Source: Candidatus Hadarchaeales archaeon
GTDB taxonomy: Archaea; Hadarchaeota; Hadarchaeia; Hadarchaeales; JAWBSP01
Reading direction: 5' to 3'
Assembly (NCBI GenBank): GCA_038842485.1
Contig: JAWBSP010000002.1
Location: forward strand, 1 to 60,762
DNA length: 60,762 nt
Made by a program: the position numbers and the translations under genes. The notes beneath the pieces are model-generated. The model did not search any database and was not told the origin of the DNA. It was given only the letters and a program-made list of their open reading frames with translations. Below are positions 12,337-41,745 of the stretch, piece by piece; the first letter of the stretch is position 1, and each line of letters begins with the position of its first letter.

Positions 12337-12370
12337 GACTTTATACATACGAGGTGAGGATGTGAGAAAG

Positions 12371-14071
<1,701 letters not shown>

Positions 14072-22532: not shown

Positions 22533-23609
22533 CTAGAGGACTGGTATCAGAATGATGTCCTTGGAGGTCTCGTGGAGCTCGCACTGGACGATGATTCTCC
22601 CAGCCTCCTCCGGCACCTCAACCCTGTAAATGACCGGGAGCTGGTACATGCCCAGCGCGGCATTCAGCCCTGAGTCTATCACCTTGTTGGCGAAATTGTC
22701 AATCGAGACCACAGCTGCCTGGGTGGAGCCAGCCATCCTAGCCTTGATGGTTTCCCAGACATCTGTGGCGTAGGAATAACTGGTGGTATCGGTGCTGTAG
22801 GACCAGCTGATGGAGGAGAGGACCTCTTGTGGGTAGACCGCCCCTAGGATCCTCGCATTCCCCACCAGCAGGGTGATCTGTTTGCTCGAGGGATCATAGA
22901 GGTATATGTTCACCAGCTTTCCGGGCCTAACATTTGGGGTGCGGGAGAAAGTGTCCTGGACAGGAACCTCCACCAGAGTGGTGCTCGTGATGTCCAGCTT
23001 CCTCAAATCCGTCCAGCTCTTCGATTGGATGTACTCTGCGGCGTTCTCGGGGCTCATGCTGAGCCAGCTCTTTCCCTCCACAACCAGCCAGACTCTCTTG
23101 TAGTTCTCGAGCTCCTCCAATCTGCGTGAGAAGTAGTTCCTCCACGCCGAGGTCATCTCCTGGTTGATGGTGGGCTCAAGTGCTTGTAGTTCAGCCAAGG
23201 TGGTCTTTGAATTGATCTGGTTCTTCAGGATCGAAGCCGTGTAGAAGAGTTCTGGTGTATCTTGGGAGGAGTGATACATGCCATTTGCAGCCTCATCCAC
23301 CCTCGCCAGCAGTTCCTGCCGCTTCCTCTCTCGGGAGGCAACCGACCGGGCGTCTGCGAGGATCTGCTGGATTTCTCCTGCCGTCTTGGCTGAGGCTATG
23401 CGCGAGGAGTATTCTTGGCGGGCGCTAATAGCTTGCGGGGTGTTCAGGTTGGTGTAGAGGGCTCCGACCTCGCGGAGGGCTGAGGTTTTCTCCGTTTCAA
23501 GCTTCTCGGTCCTTGGTTTTACGAGAAGGAAGTGATAGGCGAAAAACCCCACGATTCCAATGATGAGGAAAAATACCGCGGCTCCTATCACAGGACGTAT
23601 ATCAGGCAT
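22533..23609 (-). CDS. N-terminally anchored pilus-locus protein, possibly CpaB/RcpC-like
   Basis: Clear ORF with one N-terminal TM ('IGAAVFFLIIGIVGFFAYHFLLV') and a long helical region. The C-terminal pattern ('GKLVNIYLYD..ITLLVGNARILGAV' ... 'PVIYRVEVPEEAGRIIVQCEL') loosely resembles CpaB. The function is inferred only from this pattern and from being divergent to a MinD/TadZ-like gene. Confidence 0.45.
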   Translation of the reverse strand: MPDIRPVIGAAVFFLIIGIVGFFAYHFLLVKPRTEKLETEKTSALREVGALYTNLNTPQAISARQEYSSRIASAKTAGEIQQILADARSVASRERKRQELLARVDEAANGMYHSSQDTPELFYTASILKNQINSKTTLAELQALEPTINQEMTSAWRNYFSRRLEELENYKRVWLVVEGKSWLSMSPENAAEYIQSKSWTDLRKLDITSTTLVEVPVQDTFSRTPNVRPGKLVNIYLYDPSSKQITLLVGNARILGAVYPQEVLSSISWSYSTDTTSYSYATDVWETIKARMAGSTQAAVVSIDNFANKVIDSGLNAALGMYQLPVIYRVEVPEEAGRIIVQCELHETSKDIILIPVL

Positions 23610-23662
23610 TACCCTCTCACGAAGGGGATAAAAATCGCTTTTCGTCTGAGCCTGAGAATAGG

Positions 23663-24355
23663 ATGCGGAGGATTGCCATCGCCTCGGGGAAGGGGGGAGT
23701 GGGTAGAACCGTTTTGACGGCGAACTTGGGCGTGGCTCTGGCCACGGTGGGTAAGAAAGTTCTCCTCATGGACGCGGGGTTCACCACCCCCGATTTAGCT
23801 CTTTTCTTCAAGCTGGAGAGGGCCCTCTACACCCTGAACGATGTGCTGGCCGGGGAACTTTCACCCCAAGATGCGATGTATGAGGGTCCGCGGGGAGTCA
23901 AGGTCATGCCTCTCGGCACCACACCCGAGCACATGAAGAAAGCCTTTCCAGCTAGGTACCCCGCCCTGGTGAAAAAAATCGAGGGTTTTGATTTTATTCT
24001 AATCGACACGCCGGCTGGGGTGAAGAGGGAGAGCATGGCCGGTCTGCGTTCTGCTGAGGAGGTCCTCTTCGTCACGCCTCCAGATGTGGTTTCCCTTTCG
24101 GATACCCTCAAGTCCGTGGCAGTGGCCGACCTGCTGGGTCTGAAGAAGCTTGGAGTCATCGTGAATCGAAAGAGGGGAGAGGATTTTGAGGTGCCCTCAA
24201 AGGAAATCGAAAGGTTCTTGGACATGCGAGTCTTGGCAGAAATCCCGGAAGACAAAAAGGTCGCCAAGGCCACGGCAACGGGGAAGCTCTTTCTGCTTGA
24301 GGCCCCAAGCGCGCGGGCTTCTAGGGTTCTCCTCCAGTTGGCCAAAAATCTTTAG
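23663..24355 (+). CDS. MinD/ParA-family (TadZ/CpaE-like) ATPase with atypical Walker A
   Basis: 'IAIASGKGGVGRTVLTANLG' keeps the signature Lys, but the P-loop GK(T/S) Lys is Arg (codon AGA). 'FILIDTPAG' is the Walker B. Confidence 0.8.
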   Translation: MRRIAIASGKGGVGRTVLTANLGVALATVGKKVLLMDAGFTTPDLALFFKLERALYTLNDVLAGELSPQDAMYEGPRGVKVMPLGTTPEHMKKAFPARYPALVKKIEGFDFILIDTPAGVKRESMAGLRSAEEVLFVTPPDVVSLSDTLKSVAVADLLGLKKLGVIVNRKRGEDFEVPSKEIERFLDMRVLAEIPEDKKVAKATATGKLFLLEAPSARASRVLLQLAKNL

Positions 24356-24729
24356 AGAGTGGGCAGCCTTCCCCGGATGGTCGCCTTAACGTAACTGAGC
24401 ATGAGTTTTTGATACTCCAGCAGGAGCTTCCTCCTGGCGCTTTCCAGTTTTCTGAGTCCTTGGTCATAACGTCTGACTCTCAGGGCTATGATAAGGAGGG
24501 CCACCGCCTCGCCAAAAATGAGGAGACCGAAGGAACTTGAGTAGGTCATTCCCTGCTCCACGATTTGTGGTCGAAAAACCAGCAGGGTGGAGAAGAAGCA
24601 GGCGAAGCCGAAGATCCAGCTCGAGAGACTGAACCTCAGCATCTCGTTGAGATAGTTCCACCTCGCCCGTGTTAACTCCCTCATCTCAGCGGAGAGACCG
24701 TCAAGTTCTTTTTTTATCTCACTTACCAT
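24352..24729 (-). CDS. Small two-TM membrane protein (pilus-locus associated, unknown family)
   Basis: ATG at 24729 overlaps the stop of the upstream MinD gene by 11 nt. Layout is a coiled N-terminus, two hydrophobic helices and a basic coiled C-terminus. Confidence 0.5.
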   Translation of the reverse strand: MVSEIKKELDGLSAEMRELTRARWNYLNEMLRFSLSSWIFGFACFFSTLLVFRPQIVEQGMTYSSSFGLLIFGEAVALLIIALRVRRYDQGLRKLESARRKLLLEYQKLMLSYVKATIRGRLPTL

Positions 24730-25426
24730 GCTCGACCAGCACCCGCGCCAGTTTTCTGAAGGCCTTGGATGCGGAGGAGCGGGGGGAAAAGATGAGAACG
24801 GGCTCGCCAACCGAGGAGGCCCTGGCTACCTGTGGATCATCCGGGATTTCCCCCAAGATTGTTGCCCCGACGGTGAGACCGACCTTTCTAGAGGAAATCC
24901 CCCATCTACCCACTCTGTTGAGAATCAGTCCGGTCAGCCTGAGGCCTGCCCGTTCCACCATACTTTTGGCATTCATGGCATTGGTGATGGAGGCGAAGTC
25001 CGGATTAAGGACGATGGCAGCCTCCTGGGCCGAACTGAGTGGTGCGAGGGTGTCCTCCCCAAACCCCGAGGGGCAGTCGAGCAGGAGGAAGTCGGCATCC
25101 CTCGACAGGCTCTGTACGGCTGGTTTTATCCGCTCCAGCCTCATGGACTCGACACCCTCAAGCGAGAGTCCGCAGGGGACCACCGCAAGGTTGTGGAAGC
25201 TCCTGTAGACGGCTCTCTCCACCTTGGCCTTCCCAGCCAGAACCTCGTGGAGGGTTATTTTTTTGTCATGCAGTCCCAGCATCAGCCCGACGTTTGCCAT
25301 GGTGAGATCCGCATCCACCACCACGGTTTTCTTTCCAAGCTCCGCCAAAGCCGTTCCTAGGTTACATGCCACGGTGCTCTTTCCCGTCCCCCCCTTCCCC
25401 GAAACCAGAGCTATGACCCTTCCCAC
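24719..25426 (-). CDS. MinD/ParA-family ATPase (canonical Walker A)
   Basis: 'VIALVSGKGGTGKSTVACNLGTALAELGKKTVVVDADL' and 'DFLLLDCPSG'. GTG start. Confidence 0.85.
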   Translation of the reverse strand: MGRVIALVSGKGGTGKSTVACNLGTALAELGKKTVVVDADLTMANVGLMLGLHDKKITLHEVLAGKAKVERAVYRSFHNLAVVPCGLSLEGVESMRLERIKPAVQSLSRDADFLLLDCPSGFGEDTLAPLSSAQEAAIVLNPDFASITNAMNAKSMVERAGLRLTGLILNRVGRWGISSRKVGLTVGATILGEIPDDPQVARASSVGEPVLIFSPRSSASKAFRKLARVLVEHGK

Positions 25427-25434
25427 TTATATTT
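25427..25434. promoter_or_regulatory. TATA-like box (TTATATTT) in the 40-bp divergent gap between the MinD gene and the pilin operon
   Basis: AT-rich octamer about 33 nt upstream of ATG 25467. A GGTGA Shine-Dalgarno-like element lies at 25453-25457. Confidence 0.3.
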
Positions 25435-25466
25435 CAGCGCATTTGCTTAAAGTGGTGAAAATTTTG

Positions 25467-25895
25467 ATGCGCGGTCAAGTGAGTATAGAGTTCCTCTTCA
25501 TCTTTTCCGCCCTCCTCATGGTTTTCGCTGGTATTTCGATGAGCACCTATCAGAGGGGGAGGGGAGACCTAGAGGAGGTGCTGGGGTTGATGGAGGCGAG
25601 GGGGGCGGCAACAACCTTGGTCAACGCTCTAAATTCCGTTTACTGCGACGGGCCTGGGGCGAGGCAGACGGTATATTACTGTGTGCCCGAGGGTGCCTCC
25701 ATCCTTCTCTATCCCAAGGAAAACGTGTGGGTGCTGGCAGTGGTACTTGGCTCGGAGAACGTGGAACTTCCGACGCTCCTGAACAAAAAGTTACCGATTT
25801 CTGGGGGCTGGGTTAGCGGACGAAGGCACCGAACCTCCTTCAGGTTCGAGAACGTGGGGAACGGCATTCTCATCAGCGATAATGTGTTACCATGA
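25467..25895 (+). CDS. Class III signal peptide (prepilin-like) protein 1
   Basis: N-terminus 'MRGQVSIEFLFIFSALLMVFAGI' has a short basic leader, G/Q, then x-S-x-E-F-L and a hydrophobic helix (DUF361/Flp-like). Confidence 0.7.
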   Translation: MRGQVSIEFLFIFSALLMVFAGISMSTYQRGRGDLEEVLGLMEARGAATTLVNALNSVYCDGPGARQTVYYCVPEGASILLYPKENVWVLAVVLGSENVELPTLLNKKLPISGGWVSGRRHRTSFRFENVGNGILISDNVLP

Positions 25896-26332
25896 GGGGC
25901 CAAGTTGCCGTTGAGTACCTAGTAATTTTCGCTGCTTTCCTAGCAATCTTCGGCGGGGTGATTTGGCCCAGAGTCATTTCCCCAGCCCAGCAAACAGCGA
26001 TTGATGTTTTTCACCTCTCGCGCGCGAGGGAGCTGGCGGACAGGCTGGCCGAAATGATGAACTCGGTCTGCGCCTCCGGCGAGGGGGCGGTGAGATCGTG
26101 CTGGATCGAGCTTGGGGCTGGTTGCAGGGTGATTTTTGAGAACTCTGGAAGGGCACGGGTGGTGGTGGAGGCGATGGGGGAAAGCTTCGAGGTTCCCGTT
26201 AGGTTTGGGGTTTCAGGGGAGAATTACCTCGCCCCCGGAACCTACTGGATTTGTGTTAGGTGGCCTCCGCGCGGGGAACCAGCTGGAATTTCCTGGGGTG
26301 AGAACCTTGTGGTGTCGGTCAGGCCGGGATAG
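25892..26332 (+). CDS. Class III signal peptide (prepilin-like) protein 2
   Basis: 'MRGQVAVEYLVIFAAFLAIFGGVIW'. ATGA overlap with the previous gene. Confidence 0.7.
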   Translation: MRGQVAVEYLVIFAAFLAIFGGVIWPRVISPAQQTAIDVFHLSRARELADRLAEMMNSVCASGEGAVRSCWIELGAGCRVIFENSGRARVVVEAMGESFEVPVRFGVSGENYLAPGTYWICVRWPPRGEPAGISWGENLVVSVRPG

Positions 26333-26735
26333 GGGCTTCTTCTCCTTGGACTTCATTCTGGCTTTAACCGTAATCCTCACGACTTTTTCCTCGGTTTTCA
26401 TGATCTACCAGAACTGGAAGGGTCTGGCAAGGGGGCTGGGTGCACAGGTGGGGGCGAGGGCGGTCTGCCAGAAACTTGCCACGGCCGTTAACATGGTGTA
26501 CTCAAACCACCCTAGGGAGAACGAGAACTTCCTGCTGAGGTTTTTCCTCCCCCCGACGCTGTCTGGCATGGATTATGAAGTCTCCTTCTCAGACAACAGG
26601 ATTTGGGTTTCTGGAGAGTTCGGCTCGGTCTGTGTGTTGGTGTGCTATGACAACGTCTTGGTTCAGATCGACAACTATCTTAAGCCGGTGGTAGCGAAGT
26701 GGACCGCTGGGCGAGTAGAGGTGAGGAACGAATGA
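26298..26735 (+). CDS. Prepilin-like protein 3 (FxFSLD-type N-terminus; GTG/TTG start uncertain)
   Basis: '..RSGRDRG FFSLDFILALTVILTTFSSVF'. Candidate starts are GTG 26298 or TTG 26307, overlapping the end of the previous gene. Confidence 0.55.
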   Translation: MRTLWCRSGRDRGFFSLDFILALTVILTTFSSVFMIYQNWKGLARGLGAQVGARAVCQKLATAVNMVYSNHPRENENFLLRFFLPPTLSGMDYEVSFSDNRIWVSGEFGSVCVLVCYDNVLVQIDNYLKPVVAKWTAGRVEVRNE

Positions 26736-27112
26736 GGGGGCAGACCAGTCTGGAGTTCCTGATTTTCCTCGCTGCGGTTCTCACCGTGGCAACTTTTCTC
26801 GTGCATTCCTCCACGGGGAGATCGAGGAAGGAGCCGGTGCTGTCGGGTGCAAGAGCGGGGCTGGAGAACGCCATCGCTTTCCTGCGGGAGCAAGGTGGTG
26901 GGGAATTTGCCGTTGAACGCGCCCAGCTCTCGGGGAGGGAGCTCTATTTTAGGGTTAGGGTGAGGGGGGCTTCCTGGACCGAGAGCGAGATGGAGAACCT
27001 GCTCCGGGCCGAAGCTCTGAGATTCCTATGCTATACCTTGACCGGTTCTTTTCCGGAGGAGCCCAAGCCGGTGGGAGGTTACGATGTCAGGGTGGAAGTT
27101 GAGAGACTGTAA
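26732..27112 (+). CDS. Class III signal peptide (prepilin-like) protein 4
   Basis: 'MRGQTSLEFLIFLAAVLTVATFLV'. ATGA overlap with the previous gene. Confidence 0.7.
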   Translation: MRGQTSLEFLIFLAAVLTVATFLVHSSTGRSRKEPVLSGARAGLENAIAFLREQGGGEFAVERAQLSGRELYFRVRVRGASWTESEMENLLRAEALRFLCYTLTGSFPEEPKPVGGYDVRVEVERL

Positions 27113-28103
27113 GGGGCAGATCTTTACCTTAGATACCTTTTTTGCCATTGGGGTCTTCGCACTTGCGGTAGCTCAGCTGGGGGTGGTTTTTAGCGAGGTA
27201 TACGGTAGATCCCATCAGCAGTGGATGACGCACTCGCTGGAGAGGATTGCCAACGATGCGGCGGACATTCTCGTGTACACTGCTGGCACCCCTCTCGACT
27301 GGGCCGACAACCTAGCCACTTTAAGGGTTCCCGGACTGACCGAGAATTCAGGGAGCGAGGCTAACCGGTGCGTGCTTGATCCTTGGAGAATTAGTAGGTT
27401 CAAGCAACTGATCGAGAACGATTTTTACTCGGGCTTCGTCAGAGAGAGGCTGTTTGGAAACCACCGCTTTCTGGTGAGGATCGGGTTCCGGAAGGCCGTC
27501 TATCAGAATGGGAGCTATGCCGTCACCGAGAACTTCCTCCTGTGCGGGGAGATGCCGGAAAACGCTGTTCAGGCAGCGAAGGCACGGCGCCCTGTCCTCC
27601 TGCGGGGTGGAGGAGCCAAGCTCTTTGCGTCGGTCGATGCGCTGCTCGATAATGTCACTGAAAACCAGGATAATTTGAGCTTTTCCCTCACCGAAAGTGA
27701 GCTGTCCGCTCTCGATCTTTACATAAGAGTGTCCACGGATGAAGCCTCTCCAGTTGATAATGTCCGTTTGGGGGTCAATGGGGATCCTCCCTCTAATCTG
27801 GGCGAGATAAGCAAAGGCTATATCTATCTGTTCACCATGGGAGCGGTAGAAGGATTTCCCAATCCCTCAGCGGCGGGTCACTGGGTTTCGAGTGGCGGTA
27901 TAGAAAACGATGTATGGCTGAACCCTTTCCGATTGCCTCATGCTGGGGTCAACCAAATTCAGTGGGTTGTGCGTGGGGAGGACGGGGACTGGGCATCCAT
28001 CCAGGTTATAGGGGTACCTTCCGGTCTACCAGCTACACTCGTTCGGGAGCTCGATCCAGAGGGTCTAATGATAGGGTTTGTGGAGGTCATCGTATGGAGA
28101 TAG
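27084..28103 (+). CDS. Large prepilin-like protein 5 (339 aa)
   Basis: 'MSGWKLRDCKGQ IFTLDTFFAIGVFALAVAQLGVVF', then about 300 aa of extracellular-looking sequence. Confidence 0.6.
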   Translation: MSGWKLRDCKGQIFTLDTFFAIGVFALAVAQLGVVFSEVYGRSHQQWMTHSLERIANDAADILVYTAGTPLDWADNLATLRVPGLTENSGSEANRCVLDPWRISRFKQLIENDFYSGFVRERLFGNHRFLVRIGFRKAVYQNGSYAVTENFLLCGEMPENAVQAAKARRPVLLRGGGAKLFASVDALLDNVTENQDNLSFSLTESELSALDLYIRVSTDEASPVDNVRLGVNGDPPSNLGEISKGYIYLFTMGAVEGFPNPSAAGHWVSSGGIENDVWLNPFRLPHAGVNQIQWVVRGEDGDWASIQVIGVPSGLPATLVRELDPEGLMIGFVEVIVWR

Positions 28104-29308
28104 GGGAGAGGGGGTTCGTTTTCAGCCTAGATGCCGTTTTTGCCATCCTGCTTACAGCCTTGGTGGTGGCGGGAACGGTCAAGCTCGAGCTCCCAGGGCT
28201 GGGTTATGAGCAGCACGGATACCAGAGGCTCTCTAGGAGCGCCTCCGATGCCCTTCTTTGCCTTGAGAAGAGCGGAATCCTGGCCCAGGTGGCGACCCTG
28301 CTGATGAACGGTGAGAATGAGAATGCTGCTAGACTCGCCCGGGAGGCCCTGAGATCCCTGCTGTCGGAGGAGCTGCAGTTTAGGCTGGATGTTGCGGAAA
28401 ATGGGTTCTACATCACAAGGACGCAGTGGCGTAGAGTAGGCTGGAGGTGGGTTCCGTACACCGTGCAGGTCAACTGTCACCTTACAGTCTACCCCGACAA
28501 CCTTCGGGCGTGGGACAACGCTTTCTCCTCCCAGGGCGAGATGGCGGTAGCCTACAGGGTGACCACCGATTTTCTCATCCTAGAAAACTTCAGGGTACTG
28601 GCCTGGGTTGATGACAACAAGGAGAATGCCTTCGTGCATGAGGTTTGCCAGGGCTGGCTTCTCCCTTGGACAACTAACAACGAAGCGGAGTTCAGGAACT
28701 TGCTGGCGAGCGGGCCGGATGTGGTTTTCCTCCCCGATGTGAGCGTCCAGTGGAGTTCCACCACGGTCTGGGCTCTCTATGCAGGCAACAGCCAGGGCTC
28801 ATTTGGAGTGGTGGGAGGGGGGGAAACTGTGGCGGGGCAATCTATTTTCAATCGAATCACCTTGGGACGGATTTTTGGCGTGAGCTACCGCCGTACCGAA
28901 ACCAATTATGAAAATGTGAGAATAACTGACAACACCCATTACATCACCAGCGATTTCTCGGTGGGCGATGACGTGCCGTACGAACGCACCCTAAATCAGT
29001 ATAGGTACCGGCTCAGCAGGTGGGCTGCATCGAGGGTTCTAGCTCAGTCCTACTGGTCCGGTGGAAGGCGCCAGGAAAATGCAGCCATAATAGCGAGGGC
29101 AGAAAGTGCGAGGTGGTGGTGGAGGCAGCAGGGGAGGGCGGTTCTCTTCAACACGCGTTTGGCTCAGAGTGCCATGTACGACAACCTAGAGGTTCGGCAT
29201 CAGGAGTGGGTGATACTGGCAAGGAAGGCCATCGAGTGGGCGTCGAAAAAAGTTCCGCGGCTTCAGCCCGTTAGACTTTATGTGTGGAGGGGTGGTGAAC
29301 CTGACTGA
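28094..29308 (+). CDS. Large prepilin-like protein 6 (404 aa)
   Basis: 'MEIGERG FVFSLDAVFAILLTALVVAGTV', then a Trp/Asn/Arg-rich globular region. 10-nt overlap with the previous gene. Confidence 0.6.
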   Translation: MEIGERGFVFSLDAVFAILLTALVVAGTVKLELPGLGYEQHGYQRLSRSASDALLCLEKSGILAQVATLLMNGENENAARLAREALRSLLSEELQFRLDVAENGFYITRTQWRRVGWRWVPYTVQVNCHLTVYPDNLRAWDNAFSSQGEMAVAYRVTTDFLILENFRVLAWVDDNKENAFVHEVCQGWLLPWTTNNEAEFRNLLASGPDVVFLPDVSVQWSSTTVWALYAGNSQGSFGVVGGGETVAGQSIFNRITLGRIFGVSYRRTETNYENVRITDNTHYITSDFSVGDDVPYERTLNQYRYRLSRWAASRVLAQSYWSGGRRQENAAIIARAESARWWWRQQGRAVLFNTRLAQSAMYDNLEVRHQEWVILARKAIEWASKKVPRLQPVRLYVWRGGEPD

Positions 29309-29642
29309 CCAGAGGGGCTTCATCTTCAGCGGGCTCTCTCTGCTGCTCATCTTCAGCGTCATGATTTTGGTCTCGGCCTTCCTCGCCTCGCTGAAGGAGG
29401 GGAGCGAAGCGGCGGGGTTGCAGGTTCTGGGGAGAGAGGTGGTCTTTATTGGGGAGGACATAAAGTACAATCTGACCAGGCTCCAAGAAGCCGGGTATGC
29501 GGTCAGTGAGCTGCTTGAGAATATAGAGGAAAACTACCGGGCGAGCGGGCTACTGGTGTCACTGGAAAACGTGGGAGGTATCGTTCGAATATGCGTGAAA
29601 GATCTAAACTCCTCGGCGGTGTATGAGGGGCGGTGGCCATGA
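29280..29642 (+). CDS. Prepilin-like protein 7 (start uncertain)
   Basis: '..NLTDQRG FIFSGLSLLLIFSVMILVSAFL'. Overlaps the end of the previous gene. Confidence 0.5.
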   Translation: MCGGVVNLTDQRGFIFSGLSLLLIFSVMILVSAFLASLKEGSEAAGLQVLGREVVFIGEDIKYNLTRLQEAGYAVSELLENIEENYRASGLLVSLENVGGIVRICVKDLNSSAVYEGRWP

Positions 29643-30334
29643 GACTCTCCGAGTTCTTCAGGAGGATAGGGGAGGCAGTGTTGCATCCGAGGCTTCCGCG
29701 CGTCAGGCTCAGGCTCCCGCGATTCAAGTTGGAGAGAAAGGGGAGGAAGGAGGTCCCGAGGGTGCTCAGGGGTTTCTTTGAGGCCAGGCACGCCTGCTGG
29801 CCCGAGTACTTGGTCCTGAAGGCCCAGCTGGCTCTCCTCACCGCCTTCCTGCTTGCGATTGGAGGGGTCATTTACTCTGGCTGGCTCCTCCCCCTCTTGC
29901 TGGCCCTCCTTTCCGCCTACCTTCTCCACCTTCTCCCAGATTTCAGGGAGGCCTTCGGCAGCGACTACCAGGCCTACAGGGCTTTTATCCTCCTCTCCGT
30001 GGCTCTTCCTTGGACACTGCTCGTGCTCTTAAGGGCAAGGTTCTACTACTCCCCCTTCTTAGCTCTCTGTTTTCTGCTGGTCTCCTTCACTCTCTTCAGG
30101 GTAAAGTACGGGAGGGACTGGACTTACGGGACGGTGGAGTCGGTTCAGGGGAGGACGGTTTCCGTGAGGGTCGGGTACGATATAAGGAGCAATGTGGGGG
30201 CCGGGCTCCACGTGCTGCAGGCCCCCTTCAAGGTGAGGAGGGGCGAAAGGGTAAAGCTGAAAGTGGAAAGGCCTCTTTTAGGGTTAAGGGGTTCAAAGGT
30301 GGTCTCGATACTACAGAAAGCAGGTACTCGCTAA
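29639..30334 (+). CDS. Polytopic membrane protein with C-terminal beta-rich soluble domain (unknown family), last gene of the pilin operon
   Basis: ATGA overlap with the previous gene. Arg-rich N-terminus, about 4 TM segments, then 'YGTVESVQGRTVSVRVGYDIRSNVGAGLHVLQAPFKVRRGERVKLKVE'. Confidence 0.55.
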   Translation: MRLSEFFRRIGEAVLHPRLPRVRLRLPRFKLERKGRKEVPRVLRGFFEARHACWPEYLVLKAQLALLTAFLLAIGGVIYSGWLLPLLLALLSAYLLHLLPDFREAFGSDYQAYRAFILLSVALPWTLLVLLRARFYYSPFLALCFLLVSFTLFRVKYGRDWTYGTVESVQGRTVSVRVGYDIRSNVGAGLHVLQAPFKVRRGERVKLKVERPLLGLRGSKVVSILQKAGTR

Positions 30335-30544
30335 GCCCACCCGGTCGGCCGAAGGCCACTTAGACTTAAGAATCTGGACCGCCTGCTCTTTTGTATTCTC
30401 GATCTCTCCCGAAACGCCCGAACTCATGGAAGAGGAGGAGACAAGGAAGTTTGCAATTATACCTGCCAAAACTACTAGAAGTGCGGCAACGATAAGTAAA
30501 AACTCGATCGCGGTCTGTCCCCTACTTGGTTTAGGCTTTTTCAT
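30311..30544 (-). CDS. Flp-like small pilin (77 aa; candidate major pilin)
   Basis: 'MKKPKPSRGQ TAIEFLLIVAALLVVLAGIIANFLV' is very close to the bacterial Flp G/xTAIEYxLI motif. Short Ser-rich C-terminal part. Confidence 0.75.
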   Translation of the reverse strand: MKKPKPSRGQTAIEFLLIVAALLVVLAGIIANFLVSSSSMSSGVSGEIENTKEQAVQILKSKWPSADRVGLASTCFL

Positions 30545-30602
30545 TCTAATCAAAATAAAACAAACTAATCCAAAAGCCTGATCCTCTCCGGTAGCTAGGT
30601 GT

Positions 30603-30974
30603 CTAGGTTGTTACAGGGATGTCGGTATATACGTGTCCGGTGGGCTTGTGCCTTATCTGTACGACGTCCCCCGCTTGGTATCCGCCACCAGTAGTAAGTG
30701 TCAGCTTCTCACCCTCTGCAATTCTTCCAACACCCGCGGTCCAGCCAAGCAGCACCGTAGTACCCCTCATCACCCGGAATTCCCAATCTGCTTGGTTAAT
30801 CACTCCCGTCACCGAGGTTATGTCGAGCCGGATGTTGTTCTCATTGTCCAGTCTGGCGACAGCCGCTAGGGTAGGTGCTCCAGTAGTTCTAGTAACGTAG
30901 TAAACCGCCACTGCAACCACTACCAGCACTGCAGCCAAGATCAGGAGGTATTCGGTCGCCCCTTGAGCCCTCAT
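30603..30974 (-). CDS. Class III signal peptide pilin (123 aa)
   Basis: 'MRAQG ATEYLLILAAVLVVVAVAVYYV'. A strong GGAGGTGAT Shine-Dalgarno element 8 nt upstream of this ATG argues against the longer ORF start at 30992. Confidence 0.75.
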   Translation of the reverse strand: MRAQGATEYLLILAAVLVVVAVAVYYVTRTTGAPTLAAVARLDNENNIRLDITSVTGVINQADWEFRVMRGTTVLLGWTAGVGRIAEGEKLTLTTGGGYQAGDVVQIRHKPTGHVYTDIPVTT

Positions 30975-31012
30975 CTTTTTATCACCTCCCATTTTTGCTT
31001 AAATTGGTCTTT

Positions 31013-31930
31013 TTAAAAGCCTGTTGGTGCTATAAACCTGAGCACAAAGCCAGATCCCTTCAGGATGCCGATTGACATGAGCATAAACAAGGGTGCGAAC
31101 CTTAAGCCTTTCGTGGCGCTTCCGTACCTCACTATCCCCACCGCCACGGCGCAAATGAAGGCCTGAATCCCAGTGTAAACAGTCACCGGTAGGGCAAGTT
31201 CACCGATGGCTCCCCCCTCCCCTCCCATGCTTGTGATGGTGAAGCTCAGACCTATGACGAAGGGTGCGGCCATCACGGAGACCACCACCAAGAACAGAAC
31301 CTGCTGGGTGGTGACGGCTATGCGCTCCCTCTGGATGCTCCTGACCTCAATGGCGTCCGTGGCCACTGCCTCTAGGACATCCGCCAGCCCAGCGCCTCTC
31401 TCGATTCCCTCCACGAGCAGGCGGGAGGTTCGCTCGCAGAGCGGGGAGAAGGATCTCTTTCCGAAGGCGAGCAGGGCACTGGACAGGCTCCTCCCCTTCC
31501 TGACCTCGGCAACCACTCTCCCAAACTCCTGGGAAAGGGCCCCGTATTTTGACTTGGAAATTTCCTCTAGGGCCTCCTCCACTCCGACCCCAGCCCTCAG
31601 AACGCTCGCCATATGCCTTAAAGCGTCCGGCAGCTCTCTTTCAAGCTCGGTGGCACGCCTCCGGGCGAGCTGGTAGGGGATGAGTTGAACCAGGGTGATG
31701 AAGAGAACTGAGAAGAGCACTGGAATTAGGAGGAGAAGGCGCGGTGAAAGGAGAAGCGCCCCACCCACTCCCGCCGCAAAGGAGAGGAGGAGGGAGAGGA
31801 GGAGGGAGAGACCAGCAAACTCCTCCGCGGTGAAGGCCAGCCTGGTGGAGGCGAGCCTGCGGTCCAGATTGGCTAAGAAGTTCTCCGGAAGGAGTTTTTT
31901 GGCCACTGAGGCTATCCCCTTGGCCGCCAT
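31013..31930 (-). CDS. Type IV filament platform protein, TadC-like (single T2SSF domain)
   Basis: 'ELPDALRHMASVLRAGVGVEEALEEISKS..GALSQEFGRVVAEVRKGRSLSSAL' is the T2SSF (GspF/TadB/C/FlaJ) domain. TM segments flank it. Confidence 0.8.
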   Translation of the reverse strand: MAAKGIASVAKKLLPENFLANLDRRLASTRLAFTAEEFAGLSLLLSLLLSFAAGVGGALLLSPRLLLLIPVLFSVLFITLVQLIPYQLARRRATELERELPDALRHMASVLRAGVGVEEALEEISKSKYGALSQEFGRVVAEVRKGRSLSSALLAFGKRSFSPLCERTSRLLVEGIERGAGLADVLEAVATDAIEVRSIQRERIAVTTQQVLFLVVVSVMAAPFVIGLSFTITSMGGEGGAIGELALPVTVYTGIQAFICAVAVGIVRYGSATKGLRFAPLFMLMSIGILKGSGFVLRFIAPTGF

Positions 31931-31931
31931 C

Positions 31932-32987
31932 TCAGAGCCTCGGCTCCATCCTCCTTATGGTCATGACGAAGAGCAAGAGGAGGAGCGGCAGGAGGAAGAG
32001 CAGCATCATGGAGATCAGGGCTGGTGGCAGCATTGCGGCTCCAATCCTGCTCATGACGGTGAAGGCGATGATGAGCATGGCCGGCAGGACGGCAGAGGCG
32101 AACATGTAGAGGAGGCTGAAGAGGTTGAGCGACTGGGTGAAGTCCCGGAGCTTCATCCTGAGCTCGAAGGAGGTCTCGTTGGCCATGGAGGTTAGAATCT
32201 TTGCCAGATCACCCCCCGTTCTGAGCGTCCGCCTTATTTGCCTAAGGCTCCTCCGCAGGGGCATGGATTCGATTCTTTCCTCCAAGTTGCCCAAAGCCTC
32301 CTCAAGACTCATTCCCGCCTTCACGTCCTGGACCACCCTTCCGAACTCCTCCGAGAGCGCCCCGTAGTCCGCCTGGGAGATGGAGACGATGGCTTCAGGG
32401 AGTCCCACTCCGGAGTTGAGGCTGGTTGAGAGGTGCCTGAGGACGTAAGGGAGCTTCCGGTTGATGTCCACCACCCTCCCGAGGGCCTTCTTCTTGGGAT
32501 AGTTTCTGGCGTACATGAAAACGAAAATGAAGCCGAACATTCCGATGGGCAGGTTTAGGGGGAAGGGCAGGAAGAGGGAGCAGAGGAGGAAAATGGGGAT
32601 TCCCACCAGCATCGTCAGGGCCAGAACCAGCGCCAGGAAGACCTCGGGGGAGAGCTTGATGTTCGCCCGGTAGAGATCCCTCTCCAGCCCCTTGAACGAT
32701 CCGAGCATCCGCTGGGCTGGCTTTCTGAAGGGTGAGGTTAGGAAGTTTGTGAGGCGCTCGGAGAAGGGTTTTCTGAGTTCTGGTCTCCTTCTCAGCCACA
32801 TCTTCTCCTCCTCGGGCACCGGGGTGGGAGCGAGGATAGGGGCGGAGGCCCTTTTTATCTCCTCCAGCCTCTCCACCGCCTCCTCCTCGCTGGGTTTTCC
32901 ACCAACCGCTTCCCCCACCCTGAAGATTCCCGAGCCGAGAGTGGAGAAAAAGGAGAGGAGGACTCCCCTCTTCTTTCTCTTCGGCAT
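31932..32987 (-). CDS. Type IV filament platform protein, TadB-like (single T2SSF domain)
   Basis: 'KLPYVLRHLSTSLNSGVGLPEAIVSISQADYGALSEEFGRVVQDVKAGMSLEEAL' is a T2SSF domain. Its start shares one nt with the ATPase stop. Confidence 0.8.
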   Translation of the reverse strand: MPKRKKRGVLLSFFSTLGSGIFRVGEAVGGKPSEEEAVERLEEIKRASAPILAPTPVPEEEKMWLRRRPELRKPFSERLTNFLTSPFRKPAQRMLGSFKGLERDLYRANIKLSPEVFLALVLALTMLVGIPIFLLCSLFLPFPLNLPIGMFGFIFVFMYARNYPKKKALGRVVDINRKLPYVLRHLSTSLNSGVGLPEAIVSISQADYGALSEEFGRVVQDVKAGMSLEEALGNLEERIESMPLRRSLRQIRRTLRTGGDLAKILTSMANETSFELRMKLRDFTQSLNLFSLLYMFASAVLPAMLIIAFTVMSRIGAAMLPPALISMMLLFLLPLLLLLFVMTIRRMEPRL

Positions 32988-34573
32988 CAGTCGACTTCCT
33001 TCAGGACGCTCTTGGGCTCGAGGTAGTACCTCTGGATGATCTCTCCCACCTGCTGGATGTTACGAATGTTTTTCTTGAGGAGCCAGCCCAGAATCTTCTG
33101 CCTCTGCTTCATCTCTTGCTGCAGTTCCCTCAAGCTCATGCCCGAGAACTCAGAGATTATGCGCAGGGTCCGGCTTGGGACATTGGTGGGGCGGAGCTCG
33201 TCCGTTCTGGCATCCCAGACGTAGATCCTGCTCAGCTGAGGTCTCCCCGCCTCAAGCCCAGTAACCTCGGCTACTTCAGTTATCCTCCTGACTACCCCCT
33301 TCGTCTTGTGGTGGAGACGTTGTTGCATGATGATCAGATCTAGGGCCGGGATCATGATGGGGGGCACACTCATGGGGGGTTCGGTGAGGCGGGTGATGGT
33401 CTCGGCGGCTGAGTTGGCGTGCAGGGTGCCCATGCAGCCCTCATGGCCCGTATTCATAGCGGTGAACATAGTGAGGGCCTCCGGACCTCTAACCTCTCCA
33501 ACGATCAGCCTGTCGGGCCTCATCCGTAGGGCATTTTTCACCAAATCGTCCATGGTGATTTCCCCTCGGCCCTCAATGTTAGGGGGCCTTGTTTCAAGCC
33601 TAACCCAGTGCTTGTGTGGAAGCTGGAGCTCTGCCGTGTCCTCTATCGATATGATTCTCTCTCGCTCGGGGCAGAAGTTCACCAACGTGTTGAGGGTGGT
33701 GGTCTTTCCCGAACCGGTCCCACCCGAAATCAGGATGTTCGCTGGTTTCACCCCGAAGCCGTCCACCACCGACCAGAGGAAGGAGGCAACCTCAAGGTTA
33801 AGGGTTCCAAAGCTCAACAAGTCGACAACTGTCAGGGGGTCGGATCTGAACTTTCTGATGGAGATAGTTGGGCCGGCCAGCGAAACAGGAGGAATGGTAG
33901 CGTTCACCCTACTTCCATCTGGGAGTCTGGCATCGAGAAGGGGCACTTGTTGGTCTATCCTCCGTCCCACGACCCTCGCCATCTTCTCGATTAGGTAAAG
34001 GATCGAGTCATCGTCCTCGAAGACCACGTTGGTCTGGCACATCCCGTACTTGCGGTGGAAGACGTACACGGGCTTCCCTGTGCCTATCACTAGGATATCC
34101 TCGAGCTTGTCATCGGCAATCAGGGGATCCAGCGCTCCGTAGCCGAGCATGTCCCTAACCGCCAGCTCAGAGATTACCTTGACCCTTCCGGAGGGAACGT
34201 GAAGTTTTCTGGCCTCCTCCCCCGCTATCCTCAGTGTTTCCTTGAGGAAGACCTGTCTGAGTGCGGAGGGATCTGTGAGGTCGGGGTTTACCTTGATTTC
34301 TTCTGCGGCCCGTTCCTTTGTGACCTTCAGGAGTTTTTTCTCCGCATCGGTTAGCTGGGGGATGTGTAGTCTGTAAAGGGGTAGCACTTCTCCCTGTAAG
34401 GACAGGATTTCGCACTCCCCGTACTTCTCCAAGAGTTTAGCCCCGCGGGGAATCTCTGGTGCCTCCCAACCAGTGGGTTTCGTCTCAGCAGGTGCCTTGG
34501 CTTCTGAGGGGGCACCCTCTGCTGGAATTTCGGCAAGAATTTTGGATATATATCCCTCCCCTTTCTTGGCCAT
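32987..34573 (-). CDS. Type IV filament secretion ATPase (CpaF/TadA/VirB11-FlaI superfamily)
   Basis: Walker A 'ISGGTGSGKTTTLNTL', Asp box 'ISIEDTAELQL', Walker B 'DRLIVGEVRGPEA' and His box 'GHEGCMGTLHANSA'. Confidence 0.9.
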   Translation of the reverse strand: MAKKGEGYISKILAEIPAEGAPSEAKAPAETKPTGWEAPEIPRGAKLLEKYGECEILSLQGEVLPLYRLHIPQLTDAEKKLLKVTKERAAEEIKVNPDLTDPSALRQVFLKETLRIAGEEARKLHVPSGRVKVISELAVRDMLGYGALDPLIADDKLEDILVIGTGKPVYVFHRKYGMCQTNVVFEDDDSILYLIEKMARVVGRRIDQQVPLLDARLPDGSRVNATIPPVSLAGPTISIRKFRSDPLTVVDLLSFGTLNLEVASFLWSVVDGFGVKPANILISGGTGSGKTTTLNTLVNFCPERERIISIEDTAELQLPHKHWVRLETRPPNIEGRGEITMDDLVKNALRMRPDRLIVGEVRGPEALTMFTAMNTGHEGCMGTLHANSAAETITRLTEPPMSVPPIMIPALDLIIMQQRLHHKTKGVVRRITEVAEVTGLEAGRPQLSRIYVWDARTDELRPTNVPSRTLRIISEFSGMSLRELQQEMKQRQKILGWLLKKNIRNIQQVGEIIQRYYLEPKSVLKEVD

Positions 34574-34630
34574 CAAATTTTATTTCTCCCAAGGAAATAA
34601 ACCCAAAATTCTGGCAGGCAAAGTTTCTTA

Positions 34631-35952: not shown

Positions 35953-37821
35953 ATGGCGCTCCTGAAGGAAATCATCTTGGAGAATTTCATGAGCTACAAG
36001 TATGCTCGGATACCCCTACGACCGGGTCTGAACATCATCTGCGGGCCGAACGGGGCGGGAAAGTCCTCCATCCTTCTGGGACTAGCAGTGGCCCTCGGTC
36101 AGTCTTACACGGAGCGTTCTAGAAGGTTGGGGGAGCTGGTCAGAAGGGGGGAGAGTATTGGGAGGGTGACGGTGGTTTTCGACAACTCGCCCAGAAATGG
36201 TTCGAGACCCCTCCCAGATTTCAAATCCGATCAGATCGTTCTCTCTAGGTATCTAAGGAGGGACGGGACTTACTGGCAGGAACTCAACAACCGCAGCGTG
36301 CTGAAGGGGGAAGTTGAGCGCCTGCTTCAGCGTCTCCATCTGAACCCCGACAACATGCTTATCATCATGCACCAGAACATGATCGACCTCTTCGGGGCTC
36401 TCGATCCTCCGCAGCGCCTGCAGTTGGTGGAGGAGGCGGTGGGGATGAAGAACTACCGGGAGATGATCCTCCAAGCCCGTGAGAAGCTCTCCCACACCCT
36501 AAGCGAGGAGCAGGCCATCAAGAGCATGCTTGAGCGAGCGCAGGAAACGCTGAAGCACTGGGAGGCTGAGTACCAGAGGCTTCTGAGAAAGCGGGAACTC
36601 CAAGAAAGCAAGCGAAGGCTCGAGCTGGAACATGCCTGGGCGAAGTACCAGCGGAGGGAGGAGGAGGCAGCGGAACTGAAGAGGAAGATCTCGGATCTGA
36701 AGCGGGAGCTAGCCGAAATACTTCAGGGGCTGGAGGCAGGAACGAGGGAGGAGGCAGATTTAAAGGAGGAGCTCGGGAGGCTGGAGTTTGAACTGGATTC
36801 CGCTTATCAGGCCCTCATTCTCCTCGAGCGGAGGAGGGTGGAGGCCGAAACAAGGGCCAAACTTCTGGAAGGGCTGAAGCTGCAGGGAGTGGAGCGGGAG
36901 CTTGAGAGAGCCAAGGCCACCCTGCCTGAGGTGGACGGAGAAATAGAGGAGAAGAGGTCCGAGGTCTCAAGGGTCAAACAGCTACTCTCGAAGCGAAGGG
37001 AGGAATACGTGAACTGCAGGGTTAGACTGGCAGTTCTGGAGTTCAGGAAGGGCTTGGTGGAGGGAGAAGTCTCCACCCTTCAGTCCGATCTCAGAAGGGT
37101 TCAGGAGGAACTGGCGGAACTGCGGGTTGAAGCCGAGAAGGTTGGACCGCGAGTGAAGACCAGCAGGAAGCCGGCGGAGGTTCTGGATGAACTCAGGCTG
37201 GTGAACGCTCAGCTCGCCAGTCTCGCGGATGTCTCAGAGGACGCGGAGAAAATGTACATGAGCTACCAAGAAACCCTAAAGGAGCTCGAGGAGAAGAGCA
37301 GGATAGCCGCCAAGAACCGAGAGAGGGCACTCCAGGAATTGGAGCTCAGGAAGCGGAGGTGGCAAACGGAGTTGGAAAAGCTCCTCAAGGAGGTGAGGGT
37401 GAGCTTCAACCGTTTACTGGAGCGGGTAGGGGGGAGGGGTGATCTGGTTCTCTCTCACCCGGAAGACATAGAGGAGTCGGGGCTGGAGATATACGTGGGG
37501 TTTGGGGGGGCCGAGCCACATCTTCTGGATGCCTACACGCAGAGCGGGGGGGAGAGAACGACTGCCATCATGTGTTTCATGCTCGCTCTGCAGAACCGTA
37601 TCAAGTCTCCCCTCAGGGCGGTGGACGAGTTCGAGGCCCATTTGGATCCACATAAGAGGGAGGAGCTGATGAGGGGAATAATGGAGGTCTGTGGGGAGGG
37701 GGAGAATCAGTACCTCCTCATCACTCCAGGCTGGCTCAGTGGTCTGCAGAAGGTTTCGAACGTGGTGGTGGTTCAGAACGTCGGCGGGGTTTCCGAGGTG
37801 AAAATAGTTGAAGCCGACTGA
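35953..37821 (+). CDS. Short hinge-less SMC-family ATPase with Smc5/6-like head (622 aa)
   Basis: 'ILENFMSYKY..LNIICGPNGAGKSSILLGLAVALG' (Walker A), 'IIMHQNMIDLF' (Q-loop) and about 300 aa of E/L/R/K heptad-rich coiled coil without a globular hinge. C-terminal 'QSGGERTTAIMCFMLALQ....LRAVDEFEAHLD' gives the signature and Walker B. Confidence 0.8.
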   Translation: MALLKEIILENFMSYKYARIPLRPGLNIICGPNGAGKSSILLGLAVALGQSYTERSRRLGELVRRGESIGRVTVVFDNSPRNGSRPLPDFKSDQIVLSRYLRRDGTYWQELNNRSVLKGEVERLLQRLHLNPDNMLIIMHQNMIDLFGALDPPQRLQLVEEAVGMKNYREMILQAREKLSHTLSEEQAIKSMLERAQETLKHWEAEYQRLLRKRELQESKRRLELEHAWAKYQRREEEAAELKRKISDLKRELAEILQGLEAGTREEADLKEELGRLEFELDSAYQALILLERRRVEAETRAKLLEGLKLQGVERELERAKATLPEVDGEIEEKRSEVSRVKQLLSKRREEYVNCRVRLAVLEFRKGLVEGEVSTLQSDLRRVQEELAELRVEAEKVGPRVKTSRKPAEVLDELRLVNAQLASLADVSEDAEKMYMSYQETLKELEEKSRIAAKNRERALQELELRKRRWQTELEKLLKEVRVSFNRLLERVGGRGDLVLSHPEDIEESGLEIYVGFGGAEPHLLDAYTQSGGERTTAIMCFMLALQNRIKSPLRAVDEFEAHLDPHKREELMRGIMEVCGEGENQYLLITPGWLSGLQKVSNVVVVQNVGGVSEVKIVEAD

Positions 37822-41723: not shown

Positions 41724-41745
41724 CAAGTAACACAGGCGAGATTTG

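Follow-up and report, generated by a model that had tools for sequence, protein, structure and literature searches.

Does the gene cluster at positions 22533-34576 of contig JAWBSP010000002.1, from a Candidatus Hadarchaeales archaeon, encode a known kind of filament machine, and what does it add to the archaeal relatives of the bacterial Tad pilus? The window analysed here is the whole stretch of 60,762 nucleotides in which this locus lies. Judged from its gene content, the locus is very probably the machine of an Epd-like type IV pilus (clade 1 of Makarova, 'system 1' of Albers). It is ordinary in kind: the system is already known as an archaeal cousin of the bacterial Tad pili, and nine pilins, MinD and accessory membrane proteins have already been described for clade 1 / system 1. 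Hadarchaeota are not named as a host in the system 1 literature searched, and the locus would extend the reach of the Epd-like (system 1) pilus, among archaeal systems the nearest relative of Tad, to Hadarchaeota-like archaea. Almost the entire parts list, 17 genes, lies within one compact 12-kb stretch, with argB/argD/argF at one end and tRNA-Leu and a DUF72 gene at the other. The main added value of the locus is this clear parts list, complete apart from the prepilin peptidase, together with a tentative lead from its DUF515 protein to the Tad ring proteins CpaB/RcpC.

Identities were called from a list of open reading frames (ORFs) and from Pfam and NCBIfam domain scans of the locus proteins. 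The relatives compared were L005 (a 1.03-Mb contig), L090 and L091 (long JGI contigs), L087-L089, and metagenome contigs including L094-L157. A first-pass annotation, made from the letters of the DNA, had sited all 17 genes where the ORF list and domain scans place them, with four start codons now shifted slightly. The third gene of the plus-strand operon most likely starts at GTG 26298 or TTG 26307 (codons read), because the automatic call at 26346 would drop the signal peptide. The fourth and sixth genes start at ATG 26732 and ATG 28094, and the small gene between the two MinD genes probably runs 24352-24729 (orthologues 127-130 amino acids, aa).

In its published description, clade 1 combines an ATPase and a pair of TadC genes with short major pilins, five or more minor pilins, MinD, EppA and at least two membrane proteins (PMC4858521), and it is the split platform that defines system 1 (10.64898/2026.04.22.720090). 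The sole secretion ATPase of Methanothermobacteria is of clade 1, and Methanobacterium species have a single one (PMC4858521). What Tad has in common with Epd-like systems, the clade from which it arose, is a split platform, short pilins and an ATPase of the TadZ-like kind (PMC6668835). The earlier background on the split platform, the CpaF ATPase and Tad/Epd agrees with these two sources (Makarova et al. 2016 and Denise et al. 2019, respectively). The locus is assigned to clade 1 / system 1 because it matches the description in its split platform and DUF361 pilins, in having five or more minor pilins, and in its MinD and further membrane proteins. The ATPase and platform genes are as follows.

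32987-34573, minus strand: CpaF/TadA-type (clade 1, EpdL-like) hexameric assembly ATPase, 528 aa, no intein (T2SSE, E 2.6e-55)
31932-32987, minus strand: platform protein 1, single T2SSF domain, 351 aa (PF00482, 76 bits)
31013-31930, minus strand: platform protein 2, single T2SSF domain, 305 aa (PF00482, 76.7 bits)

The ATPase had been called CpaF-type at first pass, and it does fall with CpaF and outside the FlaI clade. In a search against the PDB, CpaF (289 bits) ranks above Archaeoglobus GspE2 (afGspE, 269 bits) and FlaI (217 bits). Over a 338-column alignment, identity is 75-78% with Hadarchaeota, 70% with a Thermococcus metagenome-assembled genome (MAG), 63% with Methanobacterium, 49% with Caulobacter CpaF (44-50% with bacterial CpaF) and 37-39% with FlaI and afGspE. 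A neighbour-joining tree rooted on FlaI (26 sequences, two outgroups, deep nodes weakly supported) groups the window ATPase among archaeal relatives, adjoining the bacterial CpaF clade. Additionally, the alignment has a two-residue insertion, 'RLETRPPNxEG', common to the window ATPase and CpaF, which FlaI and afGspE are without. The archaeal C-terminal domain, which CpaF lacks, is kept and aligns with afGspE and FlaI to residue 525. In a pattern-based scan of one genome per species, only bacterial CpaF came after the Thermococcus MAG, Hydrothermarchaeota, Methanobacterium and MGII. An identical ATPase is encoded on contigs of three NCBI assemblies and one SRA run. Named homologues at 60-68% identity are from Hadesarchaea, Hadarchaeum or Hadarchaeota, and many homologues carry the JGI label 'flagellar protein FlaI'. 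FlaI is also the top NCBIfam match, at 313.7 bits against a cutoff of 550, and the ATPase is under the cutoff of the TadA model as well. An archaellum / FlaI identity was rejected on the NCBIfam score, the PDB ranking and the tree. The archaellum has the same ATPase/platform superfamily, class III signal logic and archaeal C-terminal ATPase domain; however, identity between the window ATPase and FlaI is 37%, the platform is divided between two genes, and Pfam returned no archaellin or FlaF/G/H/X/C/D/E match for any locus gene.

The platform is, as first proposed, split across two genes with one PF00482 domain each. The best FlaJ match of platform protein 1 is to the N-terminal half (positions 7-248 of 555 in the ArlJ/FlaJ profile), and the best UpsF/FlaJ match of platform protein 2 is to the C-terminal half (positions 277-459 of 484 in the UpsF profile), with 1 nt between the two genes. 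A single FlaJ gene broken by a frameshift was considered and rejected. In Hadarchaeota, Hydrothermarchaeota, MGII, Thermococcus and Pyrococcus the two occur as distinct ORFs, with junctions that vary, and the split is thus no frameshift, because the genes are separate in every relative.

The operon of T. paralvinellae and P. furiosus begins with DUF515 and an unannotated gene (287 or 309 aa), which are followed by an ATPase gene carrying an intein and then by a pair of T2SSF genes. This Thermococcus/Pyrococcus operon has clear orthologues in the window, the ATPase being 61%/51% identical to the exteins of the T. paralvinellae ATPase, and platform proteins 1 and 2 being 42% and 35% identical to the first and second T. 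paralvinellae platform genes. An intein (Hom_end / LAGLIDADG / Intein_splicing) is present in the orthologous ATPase of L090, Thermococcus and Pyrococcus (L090:1-619, where the gene is cut by the locus end; L092:12234-15611; L093:12353-15778) and absent from that of the window. It sits after the NTGHxG motif in T. paralvinellae, and inteins may account for the 790-900 aa length of the top ATPase homologue matches.

Set beside the Epd/clade 1 loci of Methanococcales, Methanobacteriales and Thermococcales more broadly, the locus has the same CpaF-family ATPase, split platform, DUF361 pilins with Q at +1, short pilin free of a globular domain (a major-pilin candidate), at least five minor pilins, MinD/FleN, DUF515 and DUF2101. 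It differs in being without EppA and in having two MinD paralogues, one of them a KGGVGR variant. The parts lie in one 12-kb locus in the window, whereas those of Methanococcus are spread over at least three loci (PMC10133366). DUF2341, the clade-1 adhesin domain, has no Pfam match in any locus gene.

Nine genes encode prepilin-like proteins.

30603-30992, minus strand: pilM, DUF361 prepilin (MGGDKKMRA/QGATEYLL), ~120 aa mature, candidate major or alternative pilin (PF04021, 27.2 bits)
30311-30553, minus strand: pilS, short Flp/EpdE-like prepilin (...KPSRG/QTAIEFLL), ~65 aa mature, candidate major pilin (PF04021, 25.8 bits)
25467-25895, plus strand: minor pilin 1 (MRG/QVSIEF), DUF361 type (PF04021, 24.4 bits; orthologue in same position)
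25892-26332, plus strand: minor pilin 2 (MRG/QVAVEY), DUF361 type (PF04021, 25.2 bits)
26298-26735, plus strand: minor pilin 3 (...DRG/FFSLD), second flavour, inferred start ('RGFFS[IL]D' kept in four orthologues; no Pfam match)
26732-27112, plus strand: minor pilin 4 (MRG/QTSLEF), DUF361 type (PF04021, 23.0 bits, cutoff 23.7)
27084-28103, plus strand: minor pilin 5, 339 aa (...CKG/QIFTLD), second flavour ('RGQ[IVA]FTLD' conserved; no Pfam match)
28094-29308, plus strand: minor pilin 6, 404 aa (MEIGERG/FVFSLD), second flavour, largest ('RGFIFSLDA' conserved; 404 aa in L001; no Pfam match)
29280-29642, plus strand: minor pilin 7 (...DQRG/FIFSGL), second flavour without acidic residue ('QRGF[IV][FL]SG[IL]' conserved; no Pfam match)

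That there are nine was borne out: in each of them a short basic leader is followed by [KR]-[GA] and next by a hydrophobic helix. The two N-terminal flavours seen at first pass are also real, each being conserved orthologue by orthologue. With cleavage following the conserved G/A, proteins of the first flavour would begin with Q (+1) and carry E at +5 and F/Y at +6. Those of the second would begin with F or Q (+1) and carry D at position +5/+6, except that minor pilin 7 is without an acidic residue. The first-flavour motif RGQxxxE[FY] is kept per orthologue in minor pilins 1, 2 and 4. On four other contigs, each orthologue keeps the flavour of its window counterpart, and the pattern is therefore not due to chance. 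The N-terminus of pilM is almost invariant across its orthologues, which occur in 1-2 copies. The pilS protein has no globular domain and a precursor of 77-80 aa (called orthologues in relatives 65-81 aa), and the 3' end of its gene overlaps the 3' end of the DUF2101 gene. QGATEY is found in both small pilins of most relatives; window pilS has QTAIEF instead.

The gathering score of PF04021 (Class_IIIsignal, DUF361) is passed by four of the nine (pilM, pilS, minor pilins 1 and 2), and minor pilin 4 is just under. The claim of class III signals is thus borne out in part, by Pfam for five (one just below cutoff) and by conservation for all nine; four match no Pfam model. A permissive Pfam scan (E up to 1-10) gave nothing useful for the second-flavour pilins, the small protein between the MinD genes or the C-terminal domain of DUF515. 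The first-pass annotation had named three outcomes that would tell against it, an ATPase in the FlaI clade, a frameshifted FlaJ and a lack of class III signals, and none of the three came out against its reading.

EppA prefers Q at +1 in its prepilin substrates, and bacterial pili have a four-minor-pilin tip complex. The four second-flavour pilins, two of them large and one without an acidic residue, resemble that tip complex in logic, if the analogy holds. On size, minor pilins 5 and 6 are candidate tip or adhesin subunits.

The accessory genes of the locus, DUF515 aside, are four.

24719-25426, minus strand: MinD2, archaeal MinD/FleN-type ATPase, deviant Walker A KGGTGKS (canonical) (TIGR01969, 258 bits, cutoff 201.75)
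23663-24355, plus strand: MinD1, archaeal MinD-type ATPase, 230 aa, P-loop Lys replaced by Arg (KGGVGRT) (TIGR01969, 235 bits, cutoff 201.75)
24352-24729, minus strand: small protein with a cytoplasmic helix and two transmembrane segments, between the MinD genes (transmembrane prediction; no Pfam match)
29639-30334, plus strand: DUF2101 membrane protein whose C-terminal domain is soluble, encoded last in the minor-pilin operon (PF09874, 86.6 bits)

Two MinD/ParA genes around a small protein with two transmembrane segments had been described, and both are indeed above the TIGR01969 cutoff. MinD2 is divergent from the minor-pilin operon across a 40-bp spacer. The KGGVGRT substitution of MinD1 is kept in L090 and L091, and MinD1 matches the NCBIfam 'KGGVGR-motif variant AAA ATPase' weakly (50.6 bits, cutoff 90). 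TadZ has an atypical Walker A (PMC6668835), which the atypical P-loop of MinD1 recalls. However, MinD1 has no extra N-terminal domain, the TadZ-like receiver region being absent, and the two MinD proteins reach 53.7 and 63.1 bits with the actinobacterial CpaE-homologue model TIGR03815 (cutoff 154). Orthologues of the small protein, 127-130 aa, are in the same position in L005, L090 and L091.

The membrane protein at 29639-30334, present as first described and left there without a family, is now assigned to DUF2101. It is in the same position in all relatives and closes the minor-pilin operon in all Hadarchaeota-like loci. In metagenome contigs (L104-L141 and similar) a recurring mini-operon, its genes all on one strand, encodes an EppA-like peptidase of the long form together with a DUF361 pilin and DUF2101, which ties DUF2101 to EppA-dependent systems; one example, L116:5986-8817, is low-GC, from a fermentation metagenome and possibly of a methanogen.

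Gene order is one-to-one, all seven minor pilins included, in L005, L090 and L091, and partial in L087-L089 and dozens of metagenome contigs. The best match of each of the seven operon genes is its positional counterpart. As the locus is compact and strongly conserved, it offers a template for deciding the true accessory genes: DUF515, DUF2101, the two MinD genes and the small membrane protein between them. In most sampled Hadarchaeota-like loci a further gene of ~170 aa separates the second platform gene from the first pilin, called as follows.

L005:13750-14268, L087:13706-14278, L088:13745-14269 and L089:13887-14330, minus strand: gene of ~150-190 aa with a helix-turn-helix (HTH)-like C-terminus (...FGVSRDTIYxDL...), no Pfam match

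It may be a regulator of the locus. No similarity to it was found in the window, where a 20-bp gap is at its position, and in L090 the second platform gene is followed directly by the first pilin (phmmer map).

Which parts does the locus have in common with the bacterial Tad/Flp (type IVc) pilus? The ATPase core is 46-50% identical to bacterial CpaF with a common indel, two platform genes come after the ATPase, and the short pilin with E at +5 and F/Y at +6 and the MinD-family partner are alike. The DUF515 protein has a beta-clip core that appears CpaB/RcpC-like (weak match). Unlike Tad, the locus is without a secretin (RcpA/CpaC), TadD and RcpB, as expected because the cell has no outer membrane. 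No Pfam match to a secretin or to Flp_Fap was found in any locus protein, and the pilins match PF04021 instead. The window ATPase also keeps the archaeal C-terminal domain that CpaF lacks, the MinD proteins have no N-terminal receiver-like domain of the TadZ kind, and DUF515 has a long helical stalk and no SAF match.

22533-23609, minus strand: DUF515 protein, 358 aa, with an N-terminal transmembrane helix, a helical stalk and a C-terminal alpha/beta domain (PF04415, 39.3 bits, cutoff 29)

The DUF515 protein had been described as possibly CpaB-like. An AlphaFold2 model (mean predicted local distance difference test score, pLDDT, 81.8) has the transmembrane helix, the helical stalk (residues 4-165) and the C-terminal alpha/beta domain. 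Searched with Foldseek against the PDB, the full model ranks RcpC (9GZR) first, as a weak match (E 0.15, probability 0.96). The C-terminal domain modelled alone also ranks RcpC first, again weakly (E 0.07, probability 0.85, TM-score 0.31), with a poorer model (pLDDT 69.7) and a match no sharper. In profile-profile comparisons (hhalign) with 51 CpaB sequences from bacterial Tad loci, broad DUF515 profiles reach a probability of 65-78% (P 2e-5 to 6e-5) over 34-53 columns only, around a matched core of 'VPI...GGl.s.GD.VDIY' against 'vsv...aGGfIlPGDrVDVl'. Reversed, column-shuffled and unrelated-family controls give at most 0.7%, but a profile of the window's close DUF515 relatives only gives 0.4-10%, which is insignificant. 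Sub-threshold matches to PF16976 (RcpC) occur in the same region in four of nine diverse DUF515 proteins (E 1e-4 to 0.06). The only recurring secondary matches of DUF515 proteins are PF16976 and the GA module (two weak matches), and the SAF domain has no match in the DUF515 proteins scanned. The first-pass suggestion thus gains support that is real yet short of conclusive, from four independent weak lines, including the RcpC match in Foldseek, the broad-profile comparison and PF16976. Homology of the C-terminal core of DUF515 with the CpaB/RcpC beta-clip appears, from these models and profiles, plausible rather than established, with the balance close to even.

A fuller reading is held somewhat more doubtfully, at a little under an even chance. 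It takes DUF515 to be the archaeal homologue of the Tad ring protein CpaB/RcpC, so that a ring-forming, membrane-anchored sleeve round the filament would already have been present in the Epd-like ancestor and been passed to Bacteria. Just as tentatively, the sleeve may have moved with the ATPase, split platform, pilin, peptidase and TadZ, and have been coupled to a secretin only later; and in archaea, with the same reserve, a DUF515 sleeve might steer the pilus across the space beneath the S-layer. If true, the homology would be one more part in Tad's inheritance from Archaea, and a widespread archaeal domain of unknown function would gain a testable role.

DUF515 is present here and in Thermococcales, Methanobacteriales and Hydrothermarchaeota. 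A word-indexed search found six relatives and an exhaustive profile search 63 clusters. In a further homologue search the matches came from Thermococcales, with one labelled Methanomassiliicoccales and many unnamed. DUF515 heads the ATPase operon in Thermococcus and Pyrococcus. By contrast, the window protein is shorter than those of Thermococcales (358 against ~470 aa) and lies at the far end of the locus beside MinD1, not upstream of the ATPase. We take DUF515 to be arCOG03421/COG1627 and DUF2101 to be arCOG05786/COG4025. No DUF or Pfam names were found in the Makarova supplements, no mention of an archaeal CpaB was found in the literature searched, and there, going by titles and abstracts, the term DUF515 is confined to soybean and mosquito work. 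In M. maripaludis, a hypothetical gene adjoining the transformation-essential MinD, MMJJ_11090, spans at least 1.48 kb (PMC10133366 Table 1, MMJJ_11080/11090). Being about the size of Thermococcales DUF515, it might be a candidate Methanococcus orthologue.

How would the machine work? Gene identities, conservation and Thermococcales orthology are as given above, and the steps that follow are inferred by homology. The nine prepilins would insert into the membrane, where an A24 peptidase encoded outside the window would remove the short basic leaders after the conserved G/A. Cleavage would expose Q(+1)...E(+5)[F/Y] in five of the nine and F/Q(+1)...D(+5/+6) in three of the remaining four, the last being without the acidic residue. 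A CpaF-type hexamer would dock on the platform of two single-T2SSF proteins and extract pilins from the membrane into the filament, whose body may be built from the short pilin 30311-30553 and/or its larger paralogue 30603-30992. The seven minor pilins would prime assembly and sit at the tip or base, or cap the filament, with the two large ones (339 and 404 aa) the likeliest adhesive subunits. DUF515 would be membrane-anchored, with a CpaB/RcpC-like domain as a possible sleeve round the filament, and DUF2101 a membrane accessory part. The canonical MinD, the KGGVGR-variant MinD and the small protein between them would place or regulate the machine, like bacterial TadZ / FlhG.

By analogy with the Methanococcus Epd pilus, the role is likely to be surface attachment and/or DNA uptake. 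That pilus mediates attachment (10.64898/2026.04.22.720090; PMC6668835), and in M. maripaludis the epd genes and an operon of MinD plus a hypothetical gene are needed for natural transformation (PMC10133366). Also essential there is a pair of genes, MMJJ_13020/13030, encoding an OB-fold protein with one transmembrane helix together with a protein resembling TctA, proposed as an archaeal DNA transporter (PMC10133366).

In the window, an OB-fold protein with one N-terminal transmembrane helix (11006-11638, minus strand) overlaps a TctA-family gene (9820-11013, minus strand). The OB-fold protein has a weak match to DUF4131, presumably the ComEC N-terminal domain family. A third MinD/ParA-type ATPase (12362-13228, plus strand; 288 aa, canonical KGGVGKT, basic N-terminal extension) is ~720 bases from the pair, with a LigT-like gene (11776-12336) between.

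By analogy, the pair and the third MinD nearby are suggestive of a competence link, and hint at natural competence in these uncultured subsurface archaea. Among the alternatives, the one that survives best is that the pilus serves mainly in competence, that is DNA uptake, working with the OB-fold/TctA pair 11-13 kb away, rather than in adhesion. This is possible but on balance unlikely. It is favoured by the M. maripaludis requirements and by the presence of the same pair in the window (9820-11638, minus strand); however, co-location inside 60 kb is a weak argument, TctA-like genes occur widely among Euryarchaeota (PMC10133366), and, as the Epd pilus also mediates attachment, the two roles are not mutually exclusive.

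An improbable alternative is that the machine builds a short pseudopilus, bindosome-like or secretion-type, and not a long external filament. Such a structure would explain the excess of 'minor' pilins, as seven of the nine pilin genes look minor, and substrate-binding archaeal machines of the type IV filament superfamily have been proposed. The ATPase also matches the BasE bindosome ATPase model below threshold (179.8 bits), but this is far under the cutoff of 1000 and lower than the FlaI and TadA scores. Moreover, the platform genes are immediately followed by the genes of two conserved small Flp/EpdE-like pilins, the locus encodes no substrate-binding protein that has a class III signal, and the orthologous Methanococcus system makes pili (PMC4858521).

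The earlier statement that the locus holds no prepilin peptidase is true of the window but not of the clade as a whole. No A24 peptidase was found within the 60 kb window by motif scan, by listing ORFs with at least three predicted transmembrane helices together with Pfam, or by tblastn. Those ORFs are locus genes or members of other families (MarC, TctA, TauE, Rhomboid), apart from a single ORF of 188 aa, which has neither a Pfam match nor a GxGD motif; the only GxGD-type motif match in the window is spurious, and tblastn of three relatives' peptidases against the window gave E >= 0.8. Between the short pilin and DUF2101, on the other hand, most sampled Hadarchaeota-like loci encode a Peptidase_A24 + Arc_PepC protein in which both catalytic Asp motifs are present, in a short form of 247-260 aa or a long form of 380 aa.

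L087:15169-15912, L088:15591-16733, L089:15346-16128, also L094-L157: in-locus A24 peptidase of relatives

The window, L005, L090 and L091 have no peptidase at this position, and a metagenome scan with a peptidase alignment returned 80 loci, none on the L090 / L091 contigs. Because most Hadarchaeota-like relatives hold the peptidase inside the locus, its absence is, on sequence comparison, a loss or relocation in some lineages rather than something typical of the system. The gene for a prepilin peptidase often lies apart from the pilus genes, and models of type IV filaments allow it to be a 'loner' (PMC6668835).

Several points weigh against the assignment to a working Epd-like pilus. With no A24 gene in the window, prepilin processing must rely on a gene outside it. 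The four second-flavour pilins (minor pilins 3, 5, 6 and 7) have no Pfam match, and a self-written FlaFind-style pattern admits only four of the nine window prepilins, turning away the four second-flavour ones and pilM. The pilS gene was left uncalled by the gene finder in the identical contig L001, and the deep nodes of the ATPase tree are, as noted, weakly supported. Finally, the locus is dispensable or decaying in at least one population, because in a MAG with an identical ATPase an IS66-family transposase follows the first pilin (L002:14034-15248, minus strand). It occupies the place of the window's short pilin and DUF2101, and the contig ends there.

Could the locus then be a non-functional remnant, inactivated by loss of the in-locus peptidase and the HTH-type regulator gene? 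Both the peptidase and the ~170-aa HTH-like gene of most sampled Hadarchaeota-like loci are missing here, and the IS66 insertion fits such decay, as does the split of DUF2101 into two ORFs in the close relative L090 (L090:3264-3966, minus strand; a frameshift or sequencing error). However, all 17 of the 17 window ORFs are intact, and peptidases need not be encoded with the pilus genes. The same peptidase-less layout is also kept in L005 and in the window, L090 and L091, whose DUF515 proteins are only 58-60% identical, and its retention across diverged lineages argues for purifying selection. A remnant is therefore held to be slightly less probable still than a pseudopilus, and the Epd-like pilus is preferred.

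Least probable of all, and very much so, is an archaellum or other non-Epd pilus (system 2 PilB3/PilA type, or subsystems 4A/4B), for which the FlaI model as top NCBIfam match, the JGI labels, a PilA-type pilin cluster (Pilin_N, DUF7289) 5 kb away at 39764-41807 and the occurrence of two platform genes in subsystems 4A and 4B too (10.64898/2026.04.22.720090) can be cited, but against which stand the FlaI score far under its cutoff, the 37% identity to FlaI as against 49% to CpaF and 61-70% to Thermococcus / Methanobacterium ATPases, the lack of Pfam archaellin or FlaF/G/H/X matches in any locus gene, and the occurrence of DUF515 and DUF2101 with Thermococcales and EppA-type loci.

System 2 (Haloferax PilB3-PilC3) has a single two-domain platform gene and an ATPase with extended termini (10.64898/2026.04.22.720090). 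It makes adhesion pili, as the window system may do, and is alike in having several pilins and in an expected MinD partner, but the in-locus pilins of the window are of DUF361 and not Pilin_N type. The second pilin-like cluster (39764-41807, minus strand) lies by IleRS, ~5 kb from the ATPase, and consists of a Pilin_N (PF07790) and two DUF7289 genes, with N-termini RGVSPVVA, KGVSVVVE and AGVSVIIF. The window has no second ATPase, and this machine, or another encoded elsewhere, may take these pilins as substrates. Nearer the locus, at 35953-38557 (plus strand), the gene of a coiled-coil SMC_N/AAA_23-type ATPase (622 aa) is followed by those of two proteins, one of 249 aa with a weak Nse4_C match and one of 184 aa that matches nothing, and the three together may be an SMC-like or kleisin-like module.

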